Virus record (IMG/VR): IMGVR_UViG_2690316062_000004
Strand: one strand, 5' to 3'
Length of the DNA stretch: 16,819 nucleotides
DNA from: a virus
Taxonomy: Duplodnaviria > Heunggongvirae > Uroviricota > Caudoviricetes
The first letter of the stretch is position 1, and every line of letters starts with the position of its first letter. A model generated the notes under the pieces. The model was not told the origin of the DNA and searched no databases. It saw nothing but the letters and a program-made list of their open reading frames with translations. The position numbers were made by a program, and so were the translations under genes. This document shows, piece after piece, positions 1 to 10,695 of the stretch.

Positions 1-885
1 TTACTTTGCAATGAGATCGGGGTCAACTTCGCTAACCCGGCATCGTTTTGACCGGTTGCCCGTCTTTCTTTTTTTCACTTTCGCCAGTTCTTCCGCGGAG
101 TAATGCGACGCGACATCCAGCCGTCGAAGCCCCATTTTGATGTACTCGCTGTTGATCTCAATACCAATGAATTTTCGTCCGCTGGCGATGGCTACGGCAC
201 CGGTAGTAAAGCTACCGGCAAACGGGTCGAGAACGATATCGCCTGGGTTGGAAGAGGCGAGAATAATGCGTTTCAGTAAGGCTTCCGGTTTTTGCGTCGG
301 GTGGTTCTCATATTCATCCATTAAATAACGCACGCGCGGAAAATCCCAGACGTTACCCGGTACTTTTTGATGATTGTATGGCTGTGGAGGATTTTTGCGA
401 TAATCGATCAACGCGCGCTGCGATCCGGTTTTGGCTTCTACCAGAATAGCATCACCGTTGAATGTGTAGTTCTTTGCGTCTTTCACCATCATCAGGATGG
501 GTTCGTACATGGAGCCGTAGTGTTTTTTCGCCTGTACTCCAGAACTGTCATATGACCAGACGATGCGACTTTTGATGGTAAAAAGCTTGCGGCACTGGAG
601 ATCGATAAAGGGCATGTTTTCCGTACTGTTCATAATGTACATGCTGCCCTGCTTTTTCAGAACGCGGTGGCACTCTGCAATCACTTCAAACAGCCAGTCG
701 ATAAACAGATCTTCTTTCCAGGCTTCGATCAGACCATCAAAATTTTTACCGATGTTATACGGTGGGTCGGCAAAGATCAGATCGACGCTTTCAGTAGGTA
801 GCTTTTTAAGTTCGGCAAGGGCATCACCGTGAATAATGGTCTTAGCTTCATTACCAAACCGGGTCGGTTCACATCCTGTTCTCAT
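1..885 (-). CDS. yhdJ: DNA adenine (N6) methyltransferase, YhdJ-like
   Basis: Translation carries the N6-MTase motif IV DPPY (FADPPYNIG) and a C-terminal motif I-like DPFAGSFTTG, and matches my recollection of E. coli YhdJ along its length. Likely ATG at 885 (GGGAG RBS upstream on the minus strand); the ORF track's 891 would be a GTG start. Confidence 0.85.
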   Translation of the reverse strand: MRTGCEPTRFGNEAKTIIHGDALAELKKLPTESVDLIFADPPYNIGKNFDGLIEAWKEDLFIDWLFEVIAECHRVLKKQGSMYIMNSTENMPFIDLQCRKLFTIKSRIVWSYDSSGVQAKKHYGSMYEPILMMVKDAKNYTFNGDAILVEAKTGSQRALIDYRKNPPQPYNHQKVPGNVWDFPRVRYLMDEYENHPTQKPEALLKRIILASSNPGDIVLDPFAGSFTTGAVAIASGRKFIGIEINSEYIKMGLRRLDVASHYSAEELAKVKKRKTGNRSKRCRVSEVDPDLIAK

Positions 886-908
886 GGTCACTCCCTTTGT
901 GACACCTA

Positions 909-1155: not shown

Positions 1156-2376
1156 ATGGCTGGCGAACTTAACAAACTGAGCGACAGGAAGTTAAAGGGA
1201 TTACATGGTATCCCGGCCAGTAAGATTGAGTTCTATGCTGATGGTGCCGGGCTGAGCGCCAAGGTAACTAAAGCTGGTGGTATTAGCTGGGTGTTTACTT
1301 ACCGACTTGACGGGCAGAAGCTGCATCGTCTGACTCTGGGACGATACCCGGATATGAGCCTCAAAGAAGCCCGTTCATCGCGTGATAAATGCCGCCAGTG
1401 GCTGGCCTCAGGTAAAGATCCAAAGCACCAGTTGGCGTTGACTACTCAGGAAACCCTTAAACCGGTCACTGTTAAGGAAGCTATAGAATACTGGATACGC
1501 GAATATGCAGAAGAGAACCGCGCGAATGTTGAACGGCACAAAGCGGAGCTGCGAAAACACATTTATCCTTATATAGGGAAAATGGCGCTCGCTGACTGTG
1601 AAACACGATACTGGCTTGACTGCTTTGACAGGATGAAAAAGAAAACTCCAGTCGCCGCAGGTTATGTGTTCCAGATGTGCAAACAAGCCCTGAAATTCTG
1701 CCGGGTTCGTCGCTATGCTGTGAGTACCGCGCTTGAAGATTTAACAATTCCAGATGTCGGTAAAAAACAGGCAAAAAAAGACCGGGTATTAAACGATAAA
1801 GAGGCTGGCGATTTATGGGCTGCCATTTCCTCTGGCACTTGCTTCATGCCTTACTACACCAGGCTACTGACAATCTTAATAGTGTTTGGGTGCCGAACGC
1901 AGGAGGCCAGGCTATCAGAGTGGAGTGAATGGGATATGGATGCCTGGGTCTGGACAGTTCCCAAAGAGCACAGCAAGGGTGGCGAGAAGATTGTAAGACC
2001 TGTGCCGGATGCCATGCGCAAATTCATTGAAATACTGCATGATGAAACGAAACGATCCGGCCTTTTGCTTGGGTCGGTTAAAGGCAGTGAAGCGGTAAGT
2101 CAGTGGGGCCGCGGCGTTTATAAAAAGCTAGGGCATTCTGAACCATGGACACTGCACGATCTAAGACGAACTTTAGCAACGCATATGAATAATATGGGTA
2201 TAGCACCACACGTTGTCGAACAGTTGCTGGGGCACTCAATGCCGGGAGTCATGGCGATTTATAACCGTAGTCTGTACTTGCCTGAGAAACTGGATGCGTT
2301 GAATAAATGGTATGACAGACTTGATATTTTATCAGGTGGATTCACTAACATTGTTTTGTTGAATAAGGCTGAATAA
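1156..2376 (+). CDS. int: Tyrosine recombinase / phage integrase, P4 family
   Basis: 406 aa with an N-terminal arm-binding-type region, then catalytic-core signatures (R in GCRTQEA, HDLRRT, LLGH, and the tyrosine in AIYNRS). Confidence 0.9.
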   Translation: MAGELNKLSDRKLKGLHGIPASKIEFYADGAGLSAKVTKAGGISWVFTYRLDGQKLHRLTLGRYPDMSLKEARSSRDKCRQWLASGKDPKHQLALTTQETLKPVTVKEAIEYWIREYAEENRANVERHKAELRKHIYPYIGKMALADCETRYWLDCFDRMKKKTPVAAGYVFQMCKQALKFCRVRRYAVSTALEDLTIPDVGKKQAKKDRVLNDKEAGDLWAAISSGTCFMPYYTRLLTILIVFGCRTQEARLSEWSEWDMDAWVWTVPKEHSKGGEKIVRPVPDAMRKFIEILHDETKRSGLLLGSVKGSEAVSQWGRGVYKKLGHSEPWTLHDLRRTLATHMNNMGIAPHVVEQLLGHSMPGVMAIYNRSLYLPEKLDALNKWYDRLDILSGGFTNIVLLNKAE

Positions 2377-3026
2377 TGACTAGTTTTCTAAAATTGGGTA
2401 TTTTCGAGCGAGAAGCCAAAGCCCCGGAGCTAAATATTAAACAACTTGCACTACTTATGTGTGGGGTAGATCCGACAGTTAAAACTGCTGATATCCCTGA
2501 AGCGAAAGTTGAAGCTTACAATATATACTATCGACAACTGAGTAGATGGTTATCAGCATCTAAATTATTTCGAGGTGGAAACTCAACAGCCTATCCCGCA
2601 GACTATATGTTTGCTCTGGCATATCCTCTTATTGATGAAGATATTACACCACAACCCATAAAGGACAGATGCCTTGCGGCGGTGGCTATAATTGCTAATC
2701 AAAACAAAGGAAAAGAGCATCTTTATGCTATGGGAGGGGATGAGCTTTTACAGGTCGGAATTGCATTGAAAAGCAGCAAACGCGGCTTGCATCGTAAAGA
2801 AGATGAAAAGGAATATAATGATAAATTAATGGGGATGCTGGTCAAGCTTATAGCACATAAGATAGGCCATTCGTTTGGCACCTCTAAAAAACCAAGCATC
2901 TCGGCTATTTTAAACGAACTATATAAATTAGCTGATGAGGAAGGTATATCTAAAACTGGATTATCTAAATCAGCAATATATGAGAAAATTCGAAAGGCAT
3001 TAAATTCGATTTATTATACGGAATGA
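2376..3026 (+). CDS. Hypothetical protein (216 aa), AT-rich, int-coupled cargo gene
   Basis: ATG overlaps the int stop (TAATG at 2374..2378). The gene is visibly AT-rich compared with the neighbouring genes. I recognise no family motif. Confidence 0.6.
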   Translation: MTSFLKLGIFEREAKAPELNIKQLALLMCGVDPTVKTADIPEAKVEAYNIYYRQLSRWLSASKLFRGGNSTAYPADYMFALAYPLIDEDITPQPIKDRCLAAVAIIANQNKGKEHLYAMGGDELLQVGIALKSSKRGLHRKEDEKEYNDKLMGMLVKLIAHKIGHSFGTSKKPSISAILNELYKLADEEGISKTGLSKSAIYEKIRKALNSIYYTE

Positions 3027-3160
3027 ATATTATTTTGCAGTGTTAGTAGGTATTATTTATATTTCATGTGAAAATACTAATTAATTATATTTGTTGGAGC
3101 TTTTGGCGATTCTATGATCGCCAAGGAGATTCAATTGTTATATTTGATGTGTATTACCGT

Positions 3161-3270
3161 TACATTCAACAGCATTCAACAGCATTCAACAGCATTCAAC
3201 AGCATTCAACGACACGTAATGACACGTTATGACACGTAACGGCACCCGACAGCACCTAACAATACCTAGC
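3161..3270. repeat. Eleven 10-bp phased direct repeats (five AGCATTCAAC-type, then degenerate GACACGTAAT-type units)
   Basis: Read directly: tACATTCAAC, AGCATTCAAC x4, GACACGTAAT, GACACGTTAT, GACACGTAAC, GGCACCCGAC, AGCACCTAAC, AATACCTAGC, with strict 10-bp periodicity. Confidence 0.8.
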
Positions 3271-3310
3271 TCCATCCACGGTCCCTACTAGGTCATTACT
3301 TGCTAACTTT

Positions 3311-3373
3311 TTCCATCTTTGTTCATGGTTATTCATCACTGTTCATCAGCGTTCATCATTGTTCATCTTTGTT
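3311..3373. repeat. Six 10-bp phased GTTCATC-type repeats (iteron-like, one mismatch from TGTTCACC)
   Basis: ttccatcttt / gttcatggtt / attcatcact / gttcatcagc / gttcatcatt / gttcatcttt. TGTTCATC differs by one base from the TGTTCACC units clustered after the primase gene. Confidence 0.7.
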
Positions 3374-3626
3374 ATGAACAATCCAAGGTGAATCAAATCG
3401 TTAAAGAACGGTGATCTTCGGCGAGTTATTGAAATTCATGATTTTTTCTCTCGAGACAGCCGTTGAAATTACTGTGGAAACTGTTTTAAACAGGGGAGCG
3501 TTATCTTGATGGAATTTCTATCTTTCAATGGAATTGCATGTTCTTTTAAAGGATTCCAGAATCAATGGAAATTCTGGTCGTTTATCCACTAATCTCTTCG
3601 CATAACATTGAAACAGTGGAGGCAGC

Positions 3627-3911
3627 ATGCAAAATATAACCTTTACCCCGCCAAATCCTGAACAGCGCCGCACCCTTTTAGAAGAGTACGGCTTTAAGTT
3701 TGATCGCCGAATCCGTGAAGATGAATGCAGCGAGATCACCAGTCTTTCCCGTTCCAGCCGCTGGAAGATGGAGCAGCAGGGGCGCTTCCCTCCGCGCTGT
3801 CACTTTGGCCGCAATAGCTGTGCTTGGCTTCTTTCGGATGTGCTCTGGTGGGTTCGTAATCCGCCAGCAGTAGAGAACGTCAATAACCCATACAGCCGTA
3901 AATCTGCTTAA
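3627..3911 (+). CDS. alpA: AlpA-family (prophage CP4-57-type) transcriptional regulator
   Basis: 94 aa; the SLSRSSRWKMEQQGRFPPR segment is the typical AlpA/Vis-like helix-turn-helix signature. GGAGG RBS at 3619..3623 before the ATG at 3627. Confidence 0.8.
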   Translation: MQNITFTPPNPEQRRTLLEEYGFKFDRRIREDECSEITSLSRSSRWKMEQQGRFPPRCHFGRNSCAWLLSDVLWWVRNPPAVENVNNPYSRKSA

Positions 3912-3931
3912 TTAACCACAGGTAATCTGAG

Positions 3932-4624
3932 ATGAAAAAGATTAATGCCCTCCACGGGCAGGGATTCGCTCACCCTGTAGCCAGCCAGCACGATATTTCA
4001 GCGAACCGTAAACAGGTTATTTCCGGTGACTGGTCGCCCATTAATCGCGGTGAATTTACGCTTGCCGATCTGGGGTTGCGCCACAACGGTAACGGGCTGG
4101 TGTGGCTGCGTTCCGGCGTGTCCGTGCATGAGGCAGACCATGATGTAGGGATAAGCGGCAAGGACAAGACCAAAGGAAGGGTTAATGGTCTTCCTTTTGA
4201 ATTTGTCGGCCAGTGGCAGGAATACCCGACTAAACGCAGCTTTGCCGTTTCAGTATCTACGGAACTACGCCGCCAGTATTACCCGGACGATGCCACTTTT
4301 GGTAAGGCGATGCGTGAGGCGGGTTATATCCCCGTGCGCACCCGTAAATTGACCGGGAAGCTGGCAAGTTACTGGCTGTATAGAGTAACGGGTAACGATA
4401 AGGGGGTATGCACAGCAGAACCCACGCCCTGCAAGGCTTCCGCGCCAGTTGTCCAGACCATATCTAAGCCTCATCCGTGGTTTAAACGTGTGGCACTCGA
4501 TGGTAAATGGCAGTACGTCTACGCAGATCACATCCGCTTTCTGACGAAAAAGCGTCATCGCGTCGATGGTGTTCGGGTTCAGGGGTATACCGCTGGCGGG
4601 CTGAAAGTGGAGGCTATTGTATGA
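3932..4624 (+). CDS. Hypothetical protein (230 aa), backbone gene of unknown function
   Basis: Long ORF with backbone-like GC content directly after alpA. No motif recognised. Confidence 0.55.
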
Positions 4625-4734
4625 CAGGCAAAACAAAGGCGGCCATGCCGGGCCGCCAGTGCAATACCGCTTTACAGAAACATCGCCAGATTACCAGGCT
4701 TGCCGCTGGTGGTCAAACCTTGAGCCGACGAAAT

Positions 4735-4772
4735 CCGTACGCACAAATTAACCGCGTACGTTTAACGTACGG
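4735..4772. promoter_or_regulatory. CGTACG-based palindrome cluster, possible operator
   Basis: Perfect 8+1+8 inverted repeat CGTACGTT-t-AACGTACG at 4755..4771, plus a further CCGTACG half-site at 4735..4741. Confidence 0.3.
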
Positions 4773-4875
4773 AGATCGAGACAAAGGCGAACAGTATTCG
4801 GGTTCATGGCAAAACAACGTTAAACGTGGTTTAGAGGCTCCGACGAAAAACGTAGAGAGCTGCGAAGATAACCAA

Positions 4876-4945
4876 CCCTCTTTAAGAGGGGAGCCTCTGC
4901 ACAACTCATTAATAGTTGCGCAAAACAGACCCTTTTTAAGAGGGG
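4876..4945. repeat. Two copies of a 16-bp palindromic unit, CCCTCTTTAAGAGGGG and CCCTTTTTAAGAGGGG
   Basis: 15 of 16 positions identical at 4876..4891 and 4930..4945; each unit is a (near-)perfect inverted repeat. They lie just 3' of the minus-strand small gene. Confidence 0.5.
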
Positions 4946-4976
4946 CAGTCCACAGCATTACGGGGAGTAACCCTGT

Positions 4977-5150
4977 TCAGCCTTTTGGCTCGATGCCGCG
5001 CTTATCAAGTTCACGGCGCAAAAGGCGTTTTATCCATCCCGACTTATTATCGTCACCGTCTTCTTTCATCGCTAAAGCGAGCCGCTCTGACAGTTCTTTA
5101 TCGAGTCTGAGCTGCACAACATGGCGCTCTTTATTTTCGCTTGTTGACAT
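4977..5150 (-). CDS. Small ribbon-helix-helix-like DNA-binding protein (57 aa), candidate repressor
   Basis: Internal ATG at 5150 preceded on the minus strand by GGAG. The peptide [57 protein letters not shown] has the strand-helix-helix pattern of Arc/CopG-type proteins. The 38-aa proline-rich extension in the ORF track (start 5264) looks non-coding. Confidence 0.45.
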
Positions 5151-5192
5151 TGTCAACTCCTGTGGTCTAGTCTGTAGTGGAGTTGACAATGT
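5147..5192. promoter_or_regulatory. Perfect 14-bp inverted repeat with 18-bp spacer, covering the RBS and start codon of the RHH gene
   Basis: ACATTGTCAACTCC (5147..5160) and GGAGTTGACAATGT (5179..5192) are exact reverse complements. TTGACA hexamers occur at 5144..5149 and 5183..5188. Confidence 0.6.
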
Positions 5193-5289
5193 ACTACATT
5201 GCATGACTTTTAGTAAAGCAAAGCCCGGCAGTGGTGGAACACTAACCGGGCCTCTAACCACCACCGTTAGCGAAAGTAACGAGGCAGCT

Positions 5290-5481
5290 ATGAAAGATCA
5301 TATCACACACCCGCAAGGGCGGAAGTCCTACATCTGGCGTTTTCTTGCACTGAGCGCCATCGGTCGCAACGTCATTCACATCACAGCTAACACTGAGCGC
5401 GAAGCCCGTGAGCAATCACCGGCTGGCTGCGTGATGGTATGCGCTGGCCGTCTACCAGTTCAGGAGGTTCGCTATGCGTGA
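5290..5481 (+). CDS. Hypothetical small protein (63 aa), first gene of the replication operon
   Basis: ATG at 5290 with GAGG five nt upstream; stop overlaps the next ATG (ATGCGTGA). It is the only plausible part of the 324-aa track ORF. Confidence 0.35.
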
Positions 5482-5668
5482 GCCAATCTGTCTGGAGCAG
5501 GCCGAATATAAATCAGCGCTGGCTTCATCACTTTACGAAACCATCCTGGAAAAAGCCTCTGCTGAATGTTCAGAAACGCTGCTGAATCTGATTTCTATTG
5601 CGTGTGATTTTAATCAGGAAATTCACCGGGCATTAATCGCCGAGCTGCACATGGGAGAGACAAAGTGA
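5474..5668 (+). CDS. Hypothetical small protein (64 aa)
   Basis: Strong AGGAGG RBS at 5463..5468 before the ATG at 5474. Confidence 0.5.
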
Positions 5669-5880
5669 GACAGGTTCCTTTTGAAGTCCTGATGCACGCT
5701 GAAAATGCCCTTTCAGAAAGTGAGTGCGCAATGTCTGTGCTGAGCATGTGGATTGACAGCATTCCCGACGGTGAAGAACACCGTGAGGAAGCGTGCCGTG
5801 TCGGAGCAATTATGTCTCTGCTGCACAAATCTATCGGCGAGCTGGTGAAGGCGCGGGAGGCTTACAGTGCGAAATCCTGA
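5665..5880 (+). CDS. Hypothetical small protein (71 aa)
   Basis: GTG start overlapping the upstream stop (GTGA), with GGGAGAG RBS upstream. Confidence 0.45.
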   Translation: MRQVPFEVLMHAENALSESECAMSVLSMWIDSIPDGEEHREEACRVGAIMSLLHKSIGELVKAREAYSAKS

Positions 5881-6058
5881 AATCAACGATAGCTGGAAGG
5901 ATAAGCGCGGCGAACTGGTCACGGTGAAAGATAACGCATTTAACCGGGTAACGTTTGTGCGTGATGGTTACGATTTTCCGTGCATCTTTCCGCTGGAAAG
6001 GTTCGTTAAAGAGTTCACTTTCGTTAGCTGGGGGCTGAAAGATGAAAAACGCGCCTAA
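5867..6058 (+). CDS. Hypothetical small protein (63 aa)
   Basis: GTG start with GGGAGG RBS at 5855..5860; the 3' end overlaps the primase start. Confidence 0.45.
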   Translation: MRNPEINDSWKDKRGELVTVKDNAFNRVTFVRDGYDFPCIFPLERFVKEFTFVSWGLKDEKRA

Positions 6059-7811
6059 TGTGAAAACCCTCCCGCGCGACAAAATGGAGGAGGCCATCAT
6101 CTTTGCTGGAACGGGAGCATGGAAAGCCGCTCAGGATTACCAGAAAGGCAAGGGCGAGCATGGAGACGATGTTCCACCTGTGGTTCTGGATCACACCCAA
6201 CTGGCGGAATTGCCACACCTGCGCATTGTTGATAAAGGCCGTCGGTTTGCTCGTGTCTGTCAGGCCGGACTTATCGAGCAAAACCAAATCAGCATGATTG
6301 CAAATAAGCTGTGTGAGGCTGGCGTTACCAATGCTGAGTTTATCAACGAAAAAGGTGAGAAAGAGGACTGGACGCCATTAATGAAGCGTTTGGAAGACGA
6401 GCCCCTAATGGTGACTACGAGGGGTAGTGCTACGCCAGCGCTTAACCAGATGGGAGCCAGCCAGCGCGGGGAGGTTCTGCTTGCTCATTACGATGGCAAT
6501 CTGGCGATCCATGCTGATTCTGACACGGTTCATCATTACAACGGCGTGGTGTGGGTTCCGCTTTCGGATAAAGAGCTACAGCGGGAAATGGCGCAAATTT
6601 TTATTGATGCCGAAGTCGCCTATTCGCAGAACGCGATTAAATCCGCTGTCGATACAATGAAGCTGGGTCTGCCAGTGATGGGTAATACAGCCCGAAATCT
6701 TATTGGTTTCAGCAACGGGGTTTTTGATACCCGGTTAGGCCAATTTCGACCGCATGATAAAAAGGACTGGCTTATCGTTGCGAGCGAATTGCCATTCAGC
6801 GAACCAGCAGAAGGAGAGACTCTGGCAACCCATGCGCCGAACTTCTGGAAATGGCTCCGCCGCTCAGTGGCGGATAATGACCGAAAAGCAGACCGCGTAC
6901 TGTCTGCGCTGTTTATGGTGCTGGCGAACCGGTACGACTGGCAGCTGTTTCTTGAGGTAACGGGGCCGGGCGGAAGTGGTAAAAGTGTTATGGCTGAGAT
7001 CTGCACGATGCTGGCGGGCAAGGCCAACACCGTATCAGCGAGCATGGCGGCGCTGGAGAACCCAAGGGAAAGGGCGCTGGTAGTGGGCTATTCGCTGATT
7101 ATCATGCCGGATATGACCCGGTACGCTGGCGACGGCGCAGGGATTAAAGCTATCACTGGCGGGGATAAGGTAGCCATTGACCCTAAACACAAAGCGCCAT
7201 ATTCAACCCGTATTCCAGCGGTGGTGCTTGCCGTCAATAACAATGCCATGTCGTTCAGCGACAGAAGCGGGGGGGTTTCCAGACGGCGGGTGATTTTCAA
7301 CTTCTCCGAAGTGGTACCGGAAAACGAACGCGATCCTATGCTGGCCGAGAAGATTGAAGGTGAGCTGGCTGTAATCATTCGCCACCTGCTCACTCGCTTT
7401 TCCAGGCAGGACGAAGCCAAACAGCTTTTGCATGAGCAGCAGAAATCAGAAGAAGCGCTGGCCATCAAACGTGAAGGGGATTCACTGGTGGACTTTTGCG
7501 GCTACCTGATGGCTTCGGTGGTTTGTGATGGAATGCTGATTGGCAATGCCGAGATCGTGCCATTCAGCCCGCGCCGTTATCTGTATCACGCTTATCTGGC
7601 TTATATGCGGGCTAATGGTCTGAGCAAGCCGGTATCGCTGATGAGGTTCGGTACGGATATGCCAGGCGCAATGGCTGAATATGGCAAGGAGTACCAGAAG
7701 CGCAAAACAAAACATGGCATAAGGTCAAACGTCACGCTTCACGACGACTCAGAAGACTGGATGCCTATGTGGAATGATACATCTCATAACAGTGGAGAAA
7801 ATCAAAAGTAA
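6042..7811 (+). CDS. P4-family primase/replicative helicase (alpha-like, D5/SF3 NTPase)
   Basis: 589 aa; Walker A GPGGSGKS with downstream Walker B-like acidic stretch (LIIMPDMT), the usual layout of phage/plasmid primase P4-family C-terminal domains. Followed immediately by an iteron cluster. Confidence 0.85.
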   Translation: MKNAPNVKTLPRDKMEEAIIFAGTGAWKAAQDYQKGKGEHGDDVPPVVLDHTQLAELPHLRIVDKGRRFARVCQAGLIEQNQISMIANKLCEAGVTNAEFINEKGEKEDWTPLMKRLEDEPLMVTTRGSATPALNQMGASQRGEVLLAHYDGNLAIHADSDTVHHYNGVVWVPLSDKELQREMAQIFIDAEVAYSQNAIKSAVDTMKLGLPVMGNTARNLIGFSNGVFDTRLGQFRPHDKKDWLIVASELPFSEPAEGETLATHAPNFWKWLRRSVADNDRKADRVLSALFMVLANRYDWQLFLEVTGPGGSGKSVMAEICTMLAGKANTVSASMAALENPRERALVVGYSLIIMPDMTRYAGDGAGIKAITGGDKVAIDPKHKAPYSTRIPAVVLAVNNNAMSFSDRSGGVSRRRVIFNFSEVVPENERDPMLAEKIEGELAVIIRHLLTRFSRQDEAKQLLHEQQKSEEALAIKREGDSLVDFCGYLMASVVCDGMLIGNAEIVPFSPRRYLYHAYLAYMRANGLSKPVSLMRFGTDMPGAMAEYGKEYQKRKTKHGIRSNVTLHDDSEDWMPMWNDTSHNSGENQK

Positions 7812-7819
7812 TGGGAAAA

Positions 7820-8049
7820 GTGTTCACCACTATTCACCGTGGATAAAATCGTCTATTTAACAGATAGTTAAGGGGTGAACACTTTTTATTGAAGTGTTCA
7901 CCAAGTATTCACCTGTTCACCTTTAAAGGGTTTTTCTTTTAAAAGGTGAAGGGTTAGGGTGAATACTAGTGAATACTTAAAATTATAGTCTTCACCCTGT
8001 AACCCAATGAATTTAAATAGGAAAAATGCAAAGGTGAACAGGTGAACAC
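7820..8049. repeat. Iteron cluster (TGTTCACC / TATTCACC / CTTCACC and complements), putative replication origin (ori/crr)
   Basis: At least eleven copies in both orientations, e.g. GTGTTCACC 7820..7828, TATTCACC 7831..7838, GGTGAACAC 7874..7882, GTGTTCACC 7895..7903, TGTTCACC 7914..7921, GGTGAATAC 7959..7967, GGTGAACAGGTGAACAC 8033..8049, with an AT-rich tract at 7921..7945. Confidence 0.65.
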
Positions 8050-8082
8050 TTAAACGTATATTTCTATTTTTTGAGGCTACAG

Positions 8083-8427
8083 ATGGAAATTTTAGGTAAT
8101 CATAAAGACAAGTTTCAGGGTATCCAATTTCTGCATAGTGCAATCGAAGAACTGAATGAGAAAACTGGAGTAACGCTGACAGACTATCTGGCTTTAAGGG
8201 CTTTTGTTCTGGCTGAGCGAAGGGAAAATCAGGATTACATTGACGCTATGGATGCACCATATGCTGACTTACCAGATGAACTGCGTTCTTACATTGAACT
8301 TCTCAATGATGTTGCTGCACAACTGTCCAATCCAGCACGTTCAAATGGAGATTTGAGGTCAATCATTTATGATGCGAGAATATCCAGCGGAAACGCTGTG
8401 TCTCACTGGCTTAATGTCGAAAGATAA
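8083..8427 (+). CDS. Hypothetical acidic protein (114 aa), first gene of the AT-rich cargo cassette
   Basis: ATG at 8083 with GAGG at 8074..8077 (the track's 8071 would be a TTG start). AT-rich; no motif recognised. Confidence 0.55.
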   Translation: MEILGNHKDKFQGIQFLHSAIEELNEKTGVTLTDYLALRAFVLAERRENQDYIDAMDAPYADLPDELRSYIELLNDVAAQLSNPARSNGDLRSIIYDARISSGNAVSHWLNVER

Positions 8428-8450
8428 TAAAGTCTACAGAGGAAGAGTTA

Positions 8451-9296
8451 ATGCGAACTAACGATAATTTACAGATGATCAATAAACATCTGGAAGGAGA
8501 GTTTGAACGGCAATTGTTTGACTCTGCGATCTACAATCTTTTAGATGTAAATAATCAACTTCGCTTCAGTAATTATGCCTATGCACTTAGAGAACTATTT
8601 TTACACGTCATAAAACGCATGGCACCTGATAAAAATGTTCAGTCATGTGATTGGTTCCCTGGCTTGAATGAAAGAGAGCAGGTCTCAAGAAAAGACTCTT
8701 ACAAATATATAATCCAGGGTGGGTTAAGTGATGAATATGTCAGGGAAGAGCTTGATGTAAATGTTGCTGGGGTTTTTCCGAGGTTACGTGACGCATTCAA
8801 TTCATTAAATAAATTTACTCACATCAGCGAAAATATTTTCCCAATTAATGATGATGCTGGCCTCCAAATGGTCGGAGAGGTTGAAGGCTGTATCAGCGCT
8901 CTTTTCACCAAGCTTGATGAGTGTCATAAGGAGATAATTAATAAGCTATATGAAGCCGTTAGTGAGGCCGCGATTCATAGTTCGATAACTGAAACTGTAA
9001 CATCAATTGATATTTTATCGACACACAGTTCGGTTGATGAAGTGTATGTTGATGATGTTAAAATAGTAGAAATAAATGATACTGAAATAGTTTTCTCTGT
9101 TATTGGTTCTGTAGGTGTCGGGTTGCAATGGGGATCTAATTCCGATTTGCGAAATGATATTGGTGCTGTAGGTAGTGAGACATTCCCATTTACCTGCGAG
9201 GTGAGAAGTCCAGTGTATGCCCCTGAAAGTTTAGAGTGTGATGAAGGGGCATTCCATGCAGATACTTCAAGCTGGTGGGAAGGGTATTACGACTAA
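8451..9296 (+). CDS. Hypothetical protein (281 aa), second gene of the AT-rich cargo cassette
   Basis: ATG 24 nt after the upstream stop; AT-rich; followed by an intrinsic terminator. Contains an R-x4-H stretch (RELFLH), which is only weak evidence for any fold. Confidence 0.6.
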   Translation: MRTNDNLQMINKHLEGEFERQLFDSAIYNLLDVNNQLRFSNYAYALRELFLHVIKRMAPDKNVQSCDWFPGLNEREQVSRKDSYKYIIQGGLSDEYVREELDVNVAGVFPRLRDAFNSLNKFTHISENIFPINDDAGLQMVGEVEGCISALFTKLDECHKEIINKLYEAVSEAAIHSSITETVTSIDILSTHSSVDEVYVDDVKIVEINDTEIVFSVIGSVGVGLQWGSNSDLRNDIGAVGSETFPFTCEVRSPVYAPESLECDEGAFHADTSSWWEGYYD

Positions 9297-9333
9297 CAAG
9301 TGTAAATTATTTGTCCTCGCGCTTATTAGTGCT

Positions 9334-9360
9334 TAGCCCGATTAAATTCGGGCTTTTCTT
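9334..9360 (+). terminator. Intrinsic terminator after the cargo cassette
   Basis: Stem AGCCCGA (9334..9340), loop TTAAAT, stem TCGGGCT (9347..9353), then TTTCTTT. Confidence 0.6.
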
Positions 9361-9528
9361 TATTATTTTCATGTATATGTTGAGAAGTGGCACTCAGACG
9401 TGAGCCGCCACTGGCCGTTAAGTCAAGCTGTAGCGAGTACAGCCTGCGAGAGGCAGAAAAAGATTTAACGGCCTCCCCCCTAAGCGCTGGTTTCACGTCT
9501 TAACATTAATTGTTACGGAAACCACTCC

Positions 9529-10695
9529 ATGAAGAAACTACTCGAATTACGCCAGCAGAAAGCCGCACTCAAAACACAGATGCGTTCCATGCTGGACAAA
9601 GCCGACACCGAAAAGCGCAGCCTGAACGAAGAAGAGGGCAAAAAGTTCGATGAACTCCGCGCCCAGGCTGATGCGCTTGAAGTTGAAATCACCCGTCTAG
9701 AAGCCGTCGCCGACGATCAGCGCAATCTGCCTGGTACTTCCGTTGAAGGTGAGCCAGTAAGCAACGACGAGCTGCGCCACTACATCATGACAGGTGATAC
9801 CCGTTCTCTCTCCACGCTGGTGCAGGCTGATGGCGGCTATACCGTTATCCCTGAGCTGGACAAAGAGATTATGCGCCAGTTGCAGGATGATAGCGTGATG
9901 CGCTCCATCGCAACGGTGAAGACCACCAAAACCAACGAATACCAGAAGCTGGTATCTGTGGGCGGCACTACCGTTAATCGTGGTACCGAAGGTGAGGCAC
10001 GTACCGAAACCAGTACGCCGAAGATGGAGCGCGTTGATATCAAACTCAACCCGATCTACGCCTACCCGAAAACCACTCAGGAGATTCTCGACTTCTCCGA
10101 GGTGGATATTTTGGGCTGGCTGTCTTCTGAAATTGCCGACACCTTCACCGCGACCGAAGAAAGCGACTTTGTGAACGGCGACGGTGATAAAAAATCCAAA
10201 GGCTTCCTGTCTTACCCTCGCGCGGCCACTGCCGACAAAACCCGTCCGTTCGGTACGCTGGAGAAGATGGAAGCGGCTGACGTTTCCTCTGATGGCCTGA
10301 TCGACCTGCTGTATAAGCTGAAAGCCAAATACCGCAAAAACGCCGTATGGGTGATGAACTCCAACACCGCAGCCAAACTGCAAAAGCTGAAAAACGGCAA
10401 CGGGGATTACATCTGGCGCGATCGTCTGGTTGCCGGTTCTCCCGATACGCTGCTGGGCCGTCCTGTTCAGTATCTGGAAACCATGCCGGATGCGGAGGCA
10501 GGTAAAGCATTCCTCGCGGTAGGCGACTTCAAGCGCGGCTATTTCATCGTGGATCACACCACTGGCGTGCGTACCCGCCCTGACAACATCACCGAGCCGG
10601 GTTTCTACAAGGTGCATACCGATAAATACCTGGGCGGTGGTGTGGTGGACTCCAACGCCATCAAGGTGCTTGAGCTTTCAGGCTCCGGTTCCTGA
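9529..10695 (+). CDS. Major capsid protein, HK97 fold, with N-terminal coiled-coil scaffold-like domain
   Basis: 388 aa. The N-terminal ~100 aa are highly charged and helical (delta-domain-like), followed by a capsid-type body. Its position directly before a prohead protease and portal supports the call. Confidence 0.85.
   Translation: MKKLLELRQQKAALKTQMRSMLDKADTEKRSLNEEEGKKFDELRAQADALEVEITRLEAVADDQRNLPGTSVEGEPVSNDELRHYIMTGDTRSLSTLVQADGGYTVIPELDKEIMRQLQDDSVMRSIATVKTTKTNEYQKLVSVGGTTVNRGTEGEARTETSTPKMERVDIKLNPIYAYPKTTQEILDFSEVDILGWLSSEIADTFTATEESDFVNGDGDKKSKGFLSYPRAATADKTRPFGTLEKMEAADVSSDGLIDLLYKLKAKYRKNAVWVMNSNTAAKLQKLKNGNGDYIWRDRLVAGSPDTLLGRPVQYLETMPDAEAGKAFLAVGDFKRGYFIVDHTTGVRTRPDNITEPGFYKVHTDKYLGGGVVDSNAIKVLELSGSGS

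Follow-up and report, generated by a model that had tools for sequence, protein, structure and literature searches.

The 57-codon open reading frame at positions 4977-5150, on the minus strand of the window (the whole 16,819-nucleotide stretch analyzed here, IMG/VR record IMGVR_UViG_2690316062_000004 of a Caudoviricetes virus), is a real gene, and its product is a small ribbon-helix-helix (RHH) protein that is predicted to bind DNA. We consider it probable that this protein is an autoregulated local repressor that, jointly with an antisense RNA, locks the operon of icd-like and primase genes on its other side, and that the lock is local rather than island-wide. The antisense RNA is previously unrecognized and belongs to no Rfam family, and the slot that the RHH gene occupies is conserved across Gram-negative satellites.

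The gene was supported by its translation, homologues, selection pattern, predicted fold and profile matches. As read from the sequence, the frame runs from an ATG at 5150-5148 to a stop at 4979-4977 and encodes 57 amino acids, with a Shine-Dalgarno GGAG (5157-5160, minus strand) located 6 nt before the ATG and conserved in loci L005, L006, and L017. Homologues of the protein form 102 clusters (72-98% identity) in many genera across the Enterobacterales, and 21 columns are invariant in an alignment of 30 sequences. Purifying selection on the frame is strong (pN 0.02-0.17; pS 0.65-1.0, saturated), and the RHH frame beat every antisense frame on pN/pS in 28 out of 28 pairs. The start and stop codons, the Shine-Dalgarno sequence, the homologue clusters, and the constrained frame thus bear out the position and size given in the original prediction. 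It was also correct that this is the lone minus-strand gene of the island backbone, being the only credible one between int and TerL, and that it diverges from the replication operon. This operon starts with the icd-like gene (5290-5481, plus strand; NCBIfam NF033153, E = 4.3e-15; also annotated by PGAP) and continues with small ORFs, a DUF4222 gene (5867-6058), and a D5-type primase-helicase gene (6042-7811). The expectation that automated annotation would overlook the RHH gene proved false: PGAP calls it as the hypothetical protein WP_162842356.1 in an E. coli locus that is 97.8% identical, and entries for the protein are numerous in NCBI and UniRef. A search of genome contigs with the 57-aa protein returned only 5 loci.

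It is important to consider that a 324-codon plus-strand frame (4507-5481), in the phase of the icd-like gene, crosses the RHH gene and the spacer in antisense orientation, and the RHH frame could be read as its antisense shadow. The long frame is truly open and is kept open in most satellites: across 66 distinct loci, the median open length of this frame upstream of icd is about 270 codons, versus 1 to 11 codons in the other frames. The third codon positions of the long frame coincide with those of the RHH frame. However, in every pair pN is roughly halved and pS is raised in the RHH frame relative to the plus frame, L003, L013, L020, and L023 retain the RHH gene even with the long frame closed, and the gene combines a Shine-Dalgarno sequence and an ATG with a confident RHH fold prediction. 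The spacer part of the long frame has a pN/pS of 0.89 with no third-position excess, which indicates no protein-level constraint and led us to reject the long ORF as an ordinary protein gene; for the icd-like gene, pN/pS was 0.39 with a third-position excess. The shadow explanation is therefore close to refuted already.

The predicted layout of the protein comprises a strand at residues ~9-16, helix A at 18-31, helix B at 36-51, and a tail, RGIEPKG; this is the beta-alpha-alpha fold of ~45 residues of the RHH superfamily (Arc/MetJ/CopG). The AF2 model of the 57-aa protein had a pLDDT of 80, and a structural search with this model returned matches to RHH proteins only, as anticipated by the original prediction. 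The model is that of a monomer with the N-terminal strand region extended and unpaired, and the beta-ribbon is absent from it because the prediction was monomeric. By sequence, the cutoff of the curated RHH model was not reached (Pfam RHH_1, 14 bits versus 20.5; E = 0.05), but the subthreshold match spans 38 of 39 model positions and agrees with other weak profile matches, to the NikR N terminus (E = 0.035) and to an Arc-like PHROG (E = 0.034). A sequence search of the PDB gave no meaningful match for the protein. Beyond the fold, it is a bare RHH with a tail of only ~6 residues and no obvious sensor domain.

The protein is distantly related to the YlcI/YnfO (DUF3950) family, which occupies the same slot in Gram-negative satellites. 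Both have the same size, the same slot beside the icd-like gene in PICIs, and the same predicted strand-helix-helix layout, and their homology was detected by profile-profile comparison (hhalign against the YlcI/YnfO slot-protein group, 91.9%, E = 7.1e-7, residues 9-56). In contrast, the window protein falls below both family models, with no match to NF041551 or DUF3950 at E ≤ 0.1, and forms its own narrow and separate branch, with only 15 matches at E ≤ 1e-3 among 1.84 billion representatives. The alleles in L002, L003, and L029 do match these models, and slot proteins of other islands match HicB-RHH, DUF3950, and YlcI_YnfO_N. In E. coli K-12, ylcI and ynfO belong to lambdoid prophages, where they presumably adjoin the terminase genes nohD and nohA. 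Our literature searches on YlcI/YnfO/DUF3950 and on an E. coli PICI repressor or inducer found nothing on this gene.

A small RHH-type gene diverges from the icd-like gene in all 66 distinct IMG/VR icd-like loci, and the same slot is occupied in typical E. coli PICIs, including the PICI of CFT073. The distance between the two start codons is ~134 nt in a cf-PICI, in Klebsiella and Morganella satellites, in an ICE, and in a P2-like prophage, while the slot gene itself is highly variable between loci. The cassette of RHH gene and leader also occurs outside satellites, in the moron locus of a P2-like prophage, an ICE region, and a Mu-like mini-element, and the block is found in about one-quarter of complete E. 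coli genomes. In the literature searched, such slot genes are termed "accessory genes" or "toxin-antitoxin modules" (HicB, YlcI/YnfO) (PMC13612085).

The region between the two genes carries paired palindromes that are candidate operators for the RHH protein. A repeat search identified O1 (5143-5157), a perfect 7+1+7 palindrome (GTTGACA-T-TGTCAAC) centered on the RHH start codon, and O2 (5187-5201; CAATGTA-C-TACATTG), which overlaps the putative -10 of the RHH promoter. They are joined by a perfect 14-nt inverted repeat (5147-5192), whose arms, ACATTGTCAACTCC (5147-5160) and GGAGTTGACAATGT (5179-5192), lie 18 nt apart; in L005, L006, and L017 the arms are kept and the spacer between them has diverged. 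O1 includes TTGACA (5144-5149, plus strand), the putative -35 of a promoter towards the icd-like gene. The matching -10 of the window, TAGTCT (5168-5173), is weak, and a sigma-70 promoter scan found none above threshold in this region of the window; in L009, an 84%-identical allele, the scan found an 11/12 sigma-70 promoter (TTGACA-16-TATATT) with its -35 over the RHH start codon. The opposing RHH promoter, which was read by eye and lies below the threshold of the scan, would have its -10 (TACATT) at 5193->5188 and its -35 (TTTACT) at 5217->5212, the two being 18 nt apart, and both hexamers are kept with unchanged spacing in L009, L013, L017, and L020. A strong intrinsic terminator on the minus strand (4638-4657; GGCGGCC..GGCCGCC with TTTGTTTT), found by a terminator scan, probably ends the RHH transcript; the same strand has a weaker terminator at 4890->4876, and L009 has a homologous terminator 3' of its RHH gene.

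The palindromes are allele specific: every allele carries duplicated palindromes of its own over two facing promoters, at a constant position and with much the same spacing, and in distant family members (L007, L008, L009, and L020) only a short ACATTG/CAATGT repeat is left. Their conservation is not independent evidence, because the start codon, the Shine-Dalgarno sequence, and the promoter hexamers also constrain parts of them. Furthermore, the allele at 4998-5214 (~217 bp) differs between islands that share this backbone. The blastn homology to L002 stops at 4997 and returns at 5215, and the break-points against L003 are 4984 and 5214, so that the swapped segment coincides exactly with the DNA-binding core of the protein plus the promoter/operator region with its palindromes. 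The RHH core and its candidate operators are therefore one exchangeable specificity cassette that is swapped as a unit.

Between the RHH promoter and the icd-like gene lies a conserved, structured cis-antisense RNA, whose structure and strand are established (5207-5294, minus strand; the RNA proper spans ~5291->5213, ~80 nt) and which is antisense to the icd-like RBS. It consists, in order, of an anti-start and anti-Shine-Dalgarno segment, a small hairpin, a long terminator-like hairpin (5254->5220), and a U-rich tail. In the RNAalifold consensus of 15 loci, 94.8% of cells were paired and 13 of 23 pairs were compensatory, a level reached in 0 of 500 shuffles, and slid controls gave 36 to 52%. 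The hairpin was assigned to the RHH strand, and the alternative of an icd-like mRNA leader was ruled out, because 52 G.U cells were counted against 1 A.C cell. A covariance model scored 97.3 bits in the window and found a match in all of 100 sources, invariably on the strand opposite icd. Its putative promoter is an extended -10 (TGaTATGAT; 5297-5305, minus strand) read from the letters inside icd-like codons 3-6, which is kept as TGnTATGAT or TGATATAAT in L002, L003, L017, and L026 to L029. Rfam gave no match at gathering scores over the whole window, and at E ≤ 10 the 4600-5500 region gave a 22-bit symR-like match plus noise, with neither C4 nor isrK. Like SymR of the E. coli type I module SymR/SymE, this is a short (~77 nt in SymR) cis-antisense RNA that covers the Shine-Dalgarno sequence and AUG of its target and would start inside the 5' coding region of that target, and the weak Rfam alignment is full length. 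However, the target here is icd-like and not SymE, and the RNA is not a symR member, because its 22 bits compare with a gathering score of 61. We also considered a C4-like pairing between a GGUGG loop and a downstream CCACC in the window, and this idea was dropped because the pairing is not conserved in L002, L009, and L013.

Taken as a mechanism, RHH dimers would bind the two palindromes joined by the inverted repeat. The bound sites would cover the promoter and start codon of the RHH gene itself and also the -35 of the opposing promoter into the icd-like, DUF4222, and primase-helicase genes. With sites over both promoters, synthesis of the RHH protein would be self-limited, and the promoter of the replication operon would be shut during quiescence. 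The second lock, proposed by analogy with P1 immI, would be the antisense RNA over the icd-like RBS, which would block icd-like translation and, through polarity, also the genes behind it. Induction would most likely consist of AlpA-driven transcription that enters from upstream and overrides the lock, and not of a helper protein removing the RHH protein. We infer that the sign of the regulation is repression, and the RHH protein could activate rather than repress.

The original prediction went further, describing a master repressor of the island that helper-phage proteins relieve. The regulator part of this claim stands, as the protein has an RHH fold and very probably regulates, in a sequence-specific manner, the divergent promoter region at the head of the replication operon, but master status does not. 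A protein like Stl, which would silence the whole island until a helper-phage protein bound it and thereby set helper specificity, would suit a sole gene diverging from the replication operon, in a slot that is universal and hypervariable as a specificity determinant would be; the short tail RGIEPKG, common to several alleles, could be a contact surface, and the founding paper called a global repressor in Gram-negative PICIs "unclear" (PMC6092414). However, AlpA is needed for the induction of both E. coli PICIs and cf-PICIs (PMC6092414; bioRxiv 10.1101/2022.09.08.507074), and its overexpression without a helper is enough for excision and replication of EcCICFT073 (PMC6092414); the CFT073 PICI has a gene in this slot. 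Operators at several promoters, as whole-island control implies, were not found: at 0 to 1 mismatch, the half-site ACATTGTCAAC occurs in the window only at 5143-5192, with no copy near int or alpA, and at 2 mismatches it occurs 7 times versus 4.9 expected, no more than by chance, a result that depends on the correct assignment of the operators. The P2-like prophage, the ICE, and the Mu-like element carry the same cassette although they have no helper. Stl of SaPIs and Rpr of Gram-positive PICIs also diverge from a satellite replication operon, but they are larger, multidomain HTH proteins whose genes share the orientation of int and whose island-wide control is relieved by helper proteins. The window protein has 57 residues, no sensor domain, and no detectable homology to Stl or Rpr, and int and alpA lie on the strand opposite its gene. 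A helper-lifted master repressor is therefore not supported, and we regard it as distinctly unlikely.

An RHH protein with another role at DNA, as an activator of its neighbors or an accessory of replication origin, partition, or packaging (cf. ParG, omega, and TraY), is very unlikely, since the candidate sites lie on promoters, away from any known ori or cos, the cassette is found without adjacent replication or packaging genes, and there are paired palindromes only and no iteron array. We give marginally less weight still to an antitoxin that neutralizes a toxic partner such as the Icd-like protein by contact, serving addiction or abortive infection and not regulation. One allele does match the Pfam HicB RHH domain and TacA and is labeled a "HicB family antitoxin," the toxic Icd protein of P1 has FtsZ as its target (PMC11897509), and in the ICE and the P2-like prophage the cassette lies among toxin-antitoxin genes (HigBA, HicAB, and Fic). 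Nevertheless, there is no cotranscribed toxin: no toxin domain was found near the RHH gene, and the only downstream minus-strand ORF (4713-4958) was rejected as a partner since it is broken by stops in the relatives L002 and L003. Moreover, the proposed partner gene is divergent and not in the same operon, the protein lacks the C-terminal extension with which RHH antitoxins typically bind their toxins, the allele-specific palindromes indicate DNA recognition, and PADLOC gave no defense match for the RHH, Icd-like, or neighboring small proteins. A broader reading, which we hold to be possible but doubtful, extends the local lock: the RHH cassette and the cis-antisense RNA would be the missing immunity module of PICIs, cf-PICIs, and P4-like elements, with hypervariable RHH/operator alleles as immunity types that decide which coresident or incoming satellites replicate. 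AlpA would then send transcription, and ribosomes on the stop-free frame, across both locks, and this passage of ribosomes would account for the ~270 open codons despite their unconstrained product.

The field model for the silence of Gram-negative satellites centers on an activator, AlpA, that is switched on by a helper signal. In every Icd-like locus sampled here, an RHH gene with allele-specific candidate operators and an antisense RNA front the replication operon. These results bear on satellite quiescence, on immunity between satellites, and on the control of a toxic Icd-like protein, and the lock, if real, matters for engineering PICIs as delivery vehicles.

The proposed arrangement resembles three known systems. 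The immI region of phage P22 encodes Arc and Mnt, both RHH proteins, and the sar antisense RNA. There, as proposed here, small autoregulating RHH repressors act at symmetric operators between overlapping, oppositely directed promoters, and a short cis-antisense RNA covers the RBS of the gene on the other side. However, there is no detectable sequence relationship (only the PHROG Arc-like match already given), the window has one RHH gene and not two, and the operon that would be controlled holds icd-like and replication genes and not an antirepressor. In the copy control of plasmid pMV158, the RHH protein CopG and the antisense RNAII act on repB, and the likeness is that of a replication-initiator operon under an RHH transcriptional repressor plus an antisense RNA aimed at a translation start. 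In contrast, copG is cotranscribed with repB on a plasmid, whereas the window belongs to an integrated satellite with a divergent RHH gene, and the first gene under control would be icd-like. The immI operon of P1 (c4 - icd - ant1/2) combines transcriptional repression with the C4 antisense RNA (PMC8198154). As in the proposed lock, icd heads the operon, and a promoter repressor is paired with an antisense RNA directed at the site where translation of icd begins (PMC8198154). The repressor is C1 in P1 and an RHH protein here, and the RNA of the window has no Rfam match to C4 or isrK at E ≤ 10; C4 lies upstream on the strand of icd and acts through short complementary boxes, whereas the RNA described here is a true cis-antisense transcript.

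The small minus-strand gene at 4977-5150, 57 residues long, is real, as the original prediction had held: its ATG (5150-5148) stands 6 nt downstream of a GGAG, and it is under purifying selection. In the DNA of eight loci, compared in 28 pairs, pN in this frame was 0.02-0.17 and pS 0.65-1.0; thus, synonymous sites are saturated and the protein is nearly unchanged. The frame also outperformed all three antisense frames in 28/28 pairs. When 5.8 billion proteins were searched, homologues turned up in 102 clusters (72-98% identity). Escherichia, Citrobacter, Klebsiella, Morganella, Serratia, Pectobacterium, Yersinia, Regiella, Xenorhabdus, Kosakonia, Salmonella, and other genera are represented; none of these clusters is named and none has a Pfam domain. 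Twenty-one columns are invariant in a 30-sequence alignment of the homologues, and the family is narrow, with only 15 matches at E<=1e-3 in a profile search of 1.84 billion representatives. The gene had been expected to escape automated annotation, but PGAP calls it (WP_162842356.1).

Weak profile matches to Pfam RHH_1 (E 0.05, nearly the full model), the NikR N-terminal domain (E 0.035), and a PHROG Arc-like repressor (E 0.034) are hints of a ribbon-helix-helix (RHH) protein that agree with one another. In the AlphaFold2 monomer (mean pLDDT 80.2), two helices (18-31 and 36-51) follow an extended N-terminal segment, and RHH proteins make up nearly all Foldseek matches in the PDB (NikR, Arc, ParG, CopG, MazE, ParD, TacA, and TCP), with probabilities up to 0.96 and E-values that are not significant, the chain being so short. 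We regard the RHH fold as established within the limits of a monomer model.

The window is a capsid-forming PICI-type phage satellite adjoining its insertion neighbor yhdJ (1-891, minus strand). The integrase (1156-2376), a 216-aa ORF (2376-3026), AlpA (3627-3911), and a 230-aa ORF in the "Bro zone" (3932-4624) precede the RHH gene, which diverges from the icd-like gene (5290-5481); there follow two small ORFs (5474-5668 and 5665-5880), DUF4222 (5867-6058), a D5-type primase-helicase (6042-7811), two cargo genes (8071-9296), and HK97-type capsid, protease, portal, head-tail, HNH, TerS, and TerL genes up to 15889. The 3600-6100 stretch is found, ~97.8% identical, in six complete E. coli genomes; the locus examined, L001, has it at the same site. 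One cargo gene (8451-9296, plus strand) has matches to predicted pPIWI-associated nuclease domains (pP_pnuc_1 and pP_pnuc_2 of Pfam, E 1e-32 to 1e-37) and to PADLOC Aga_Nuclease (E 1e-84); its partner is a 118-aa ORF (8071-8427) whose family was not recognized, and no Argonaute gene lies within the window. The near-identical island L001 has other cargo at the 8071-9296 position, on the opposite strand. Past TerL, a 297-aa ORF at the right edge (15926-16819, minus strand) continues beyond the window end; it has no Pfam or PADLOC match and could belong either to the island's cargo or to the flank.

Islands with the same backbone and site carry a different small minus-strand gene at the RHH position (the slot), annotated as "HicB family antitoxin" in L002 and "YlcI/YnfO family protein" in L003. 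Ordinary E. coli PICIs begin with int and alpA, which in some are followed by a Bro-type gene; next come a YlcI/YnfO gene of ~60 aa on the opposite strand, icd-like, small ORFs, DUF4222, and finally primase or RepA. This order, slot gene included, is also that of the CFT073 PICI beside phoPQ, which by strain and gene content is most likely EcCICFT073. The icd-like block (from ~5214 rightwards) is present in 1358/5426 complete E. coli genomes, and only 12 of them have the window's RHH allele. We retrieved 80 IMG/VR loci with an Icd-like protein, representing 66 distinct upstream regions, and a small RHH-type gene occupied the slot in 66/66; the protein tail was ...RRQRRKAKE.. or ...QRRK(T/A/V)KE.. 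in 55 and ...GIEPKG in 11, and the window's family accounted for two and its distant branch for three. The alleles are related: in hhalign the window's family scores 91.9% probability (E 7e-7) against five slot proteins, which themselves match HicB (RHH domain), NikA, TacA, DUF3950, and YlcI_YnfO_N. By descent, the RHH protein is a remote branch of the uncharacterized YlcI/YnfO (DUF3950) proteins. Slot alleles that otherwise look unlike end alike, in …RGIEPKG or …RRQRRKAKE.. (4977-4997; 3' ends in L002, L029, and the IMG/VR loci), and these common C-terminal residues may be either a footprint left by recombination or a motif conserved for some contact.

Homology with L002 stops at 4997 and restarts at 5215, and the break-points against L003 are 4984 and 5214; therefore, the exchanged ~217 bp comprise RHH codons 1-51 and the promoter region. 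The last RHH codons, with the common RGIEPKG tail, and the block of antisense RNA and icd-like gene stay constant across the exchange. The left recombination boundary of this cassette falls within the 3' end of the RHH gene. Window-type alleles also occur in unrelated backbones, with homology confined to the gene and intergenic region (~4976-5270/5324): a Klebsiella satellite (L009-12) that has a protease-capsid fusion and a DUF927 primase, Morganella satellites (L017-19) whose primases are P4-alpha-like, a Yersinia ICE region amid HigBA-type genes (L020-22), and a Mu-like mini-element of ~7.5 kb at differing chromosomal sites (L013-16); a P2-like prophage moron locus adjoining Fic (L023-25) has a distant homologue. 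In all of these except the Mu-like element, the divergent neighbor ~134 nt off encodes an Icd-like protein.

The Mu-like mini-element (~2353-9924 in each of L013-L016) contains a tape-measure-like gene, Mor, a gp27-like gene, and unrecognized ORFs, along with the same RHH gene and its antisense-RNA leader; the four chromosomal insertion sites all differ. The product of its divergent gene, 243 aa long, is not Icd-like, and ~1.4 kb downstream of the RHH gene are without a called gene. The moron locus (L023-L025, 6350-7800) lies between the gpL (head-completion) and gpX (tail) genes and also holds the RNA leader, the Icd-like gene, and a gene for 106 aa; the RHH homologue is followed, on its strand, by a 62-aa ORF and the Fic-domain gene.

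The window's promoter region has three candidate operator elements: the arms of a perfect 14-nt inverted repeat stand at 5147-5160 and 5179-5192, a 7+1+7 palindrome (5143-5157) covers the RHH start codon, and a second palindrome occupies 5187-5201. The repeat arms are preserved in L005, L006, and L017, with divergence in the 24 nt that separate the core arms. The other alleles have palindromes of their own, a pair or a trio each, in the same place and with similar spacing: GTACGTACGTAAC twice in L002, TGGTACGTACCAT twice in L029, TGGAATCCA three times in L028, GTGGATTCCAC twice and CTTGAAGG/CCTTCAAG in L003, GTGTTTAACAC twice in L026, and a 14-nt repeat in L023. This covariation of palindromes with protein allele, taken with the cassette boundaries, is the main evidence that the RHH protein is a sequence-specific regulator of its own intergenic region. 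Two putative promoters were read by eye: that of the RHH gene (TTTACT 5217->5212, 18-nt spacer, TACATT 5193->5188), whose spacing is conserved across the family, and an icd-directed one, whose -35 TTGACA (5144-5149) lies on the RHH start codon. At the latter position, a promoter scan of L009 independently gave TTGACA-16-TATATT (11/12); the window's own icd-directed promoter has a poor -10, and nothing there passes the scan. The half-site ACATTGTCAAC has no further copy in the 16.8-kb window at 0-1 mismatch; on a correct operator assignment, the protein acts only locally.

From 5214 to the icd-like start, the sequence is conserved irrespective of the RHH allele. Its fold on the RHH strand has three parts, namely a closing helix containing the anti-start codon, a small hairpin, and a long hairpin with a U-rich tract after it. 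The structured cis-antisense RNA of ~80 nt (5207-5294, minus strand) lies over the icd-like ribosome binding site and falls inside the icd-like block of the 1358/5426 E. coli genomes. Across 15 diverse loci, 94.8% of cells were paired, with compensatory changes at 13/23 pairs; 0/500 shuffles reached the observed values, and sliding the partners lowered pairing to 36-52%. On the RHH strand there were 52 G.U cells versus one A.C cell, so transcription of the RNA follows the RHH direction, antisense to that binding site. A covariance model built from the RNA gave one full-length match per source in 100/100 sources (two in L054), at 65-100 bits (50 for the extra L054 copy) and always opposite to icd, and covariation persisted on 60 distinct rows. 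An extended -10 (TGnTATGAT) within icd-like codons 3-6 is suitably positioned for a putative RNA promoter. Rfam held no family match, the best being a 22-bit full-length symR-like alignment that reflects similar architecture only. The RNA may be a transcript in its own right or may double as an attenuated leader for the RHH mRNA.

Upstream of its ATG, the icd-like frame extends for 261 codons without a stop (ORF 4507-5481, plus strand, 324 codons), running through the end of the Bro-zone gene, the 350-nt spacer, antisense through the RHH gene, and the intergenic region; its third codon positions coincide with those of the RHH gene. Irrespective of the allele, 181-296 codons are open in L001, L002, L009, L017-19, and L026-29, and over the 66 distinct IMG/VR loci the median was ~270 codons versus 1-11 in the other two frames; the frame is closed in L003 and in non-satellite contexts. 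The spacer is without protein-level constraint (differences 17/14/13 by codon position; pN/pS 0.89 versus 0.39 in icd-like). Since the open frame recurs and the spacer is unconstrained, the frame stays open but its product seems irrelevant. One speculation, drawn from P1 immI, where the expression of icd and that of ant are coupled, is that ribosomes on AlpA-driven transcripts may need to translate through, which would prevent polarity and overrun both the protein and the RNA lock. In L026, the frame runs uninterrupted from directly after the stop of alpA; its N-terminal part is marked by PGAP as a truncated pseudogene. The spacer (4625-4976; 350 nt, ~88% identical to L002) has no conserved ORF on the RHH strand. 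Within it are a 22-nt repeat, present twice and containing a palindrome both times (CCCTCTTTAAGAGGGG at 4876-4891, a variant at 4930-4945), other palindromes such as CGTACGTTTAACGTACG at 4755-4771, and a strong terminator (4657-4638, minus strand). Its indels versus L002 and L003, of 138 and 147 nt, are both multiples of three.

We consider it probable that the RHH protein is a local autoregulated repressor. Its dimers would bind the palindromes over the two facing promoters and repress both its own and the icd-directed one, thereby silencing the icd-like and replication genes as long as the island stays quiescent; the antisense RNA would stop translation of leaked transcript, and AlpA-driven transcription from upstream would override protein and RNA alike. 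The original prediction had proposed a master repressor relieved by helper-phage proteins. A regulator at the replication operon is supported by the allele-specific palindromes and the cassette exchange, but for a master repressor relieved by a helper we found no evidence and some to the contrary. The hypervariable slot and common C-terminal tail would fit a specificity determinant; even so, an Stl-like repressor of the whole island lifted by the helper seems improbable, because the published model is one of activation, in which induction of PICIs and cf-PICIs depends on alpA, itself turned on by helper phages (PMC6092414; bioRxiv 10.1101/2022.09.08.507074).

Furthermore, AlpA overexpression alone, in a non-lysogen, causes excision and uncontrolled replication of EcCICFT073 (PMC6092414; bioRxiv 10.1101/2022.09.08.507074), and the CFT073 PICI has a slot gene; thus, whatever the slot protein may repress is overridden without a helper anti-repressor. 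The candidate operators are only local in the 16.8-kb window, the cassette is also found outside satellites (Mu-like element, ICE, and P2-like prophage), and the protein has no obvious sensor domain, all of which speak against the master repressor. The founding paper calls a global repressor in Gram-negative PICIs unclear (PMC6092414), and the literature searched treats slot genes only as accessory or "toxin-antitoxin" items (PMC13612085). The zone model of these elements names Bro-type proteins and C4/isrK immunity RNAs and does not mention the RHH gene or the antisense RNA (PMC10111431).

Of greater interest is the surrounding module, which joins a hypervariable RHH cassette, a cis-antisense RNA, and a stop-free antisense frame and lends itself to direct testing. 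Functionally, the nearest known systems are P22 immI, pMV158 copy control, and P1 immI. In P22 immI, the RHH proteins Arc and Mnt lie between opposed promoters together with the antisense RNA sar, and in pMV158 the RHH repressor CopG and RNAII control repB. In P1 immI, a promoter repressor and the C4 antisense RNA act on icd-ant (PMC8198154).
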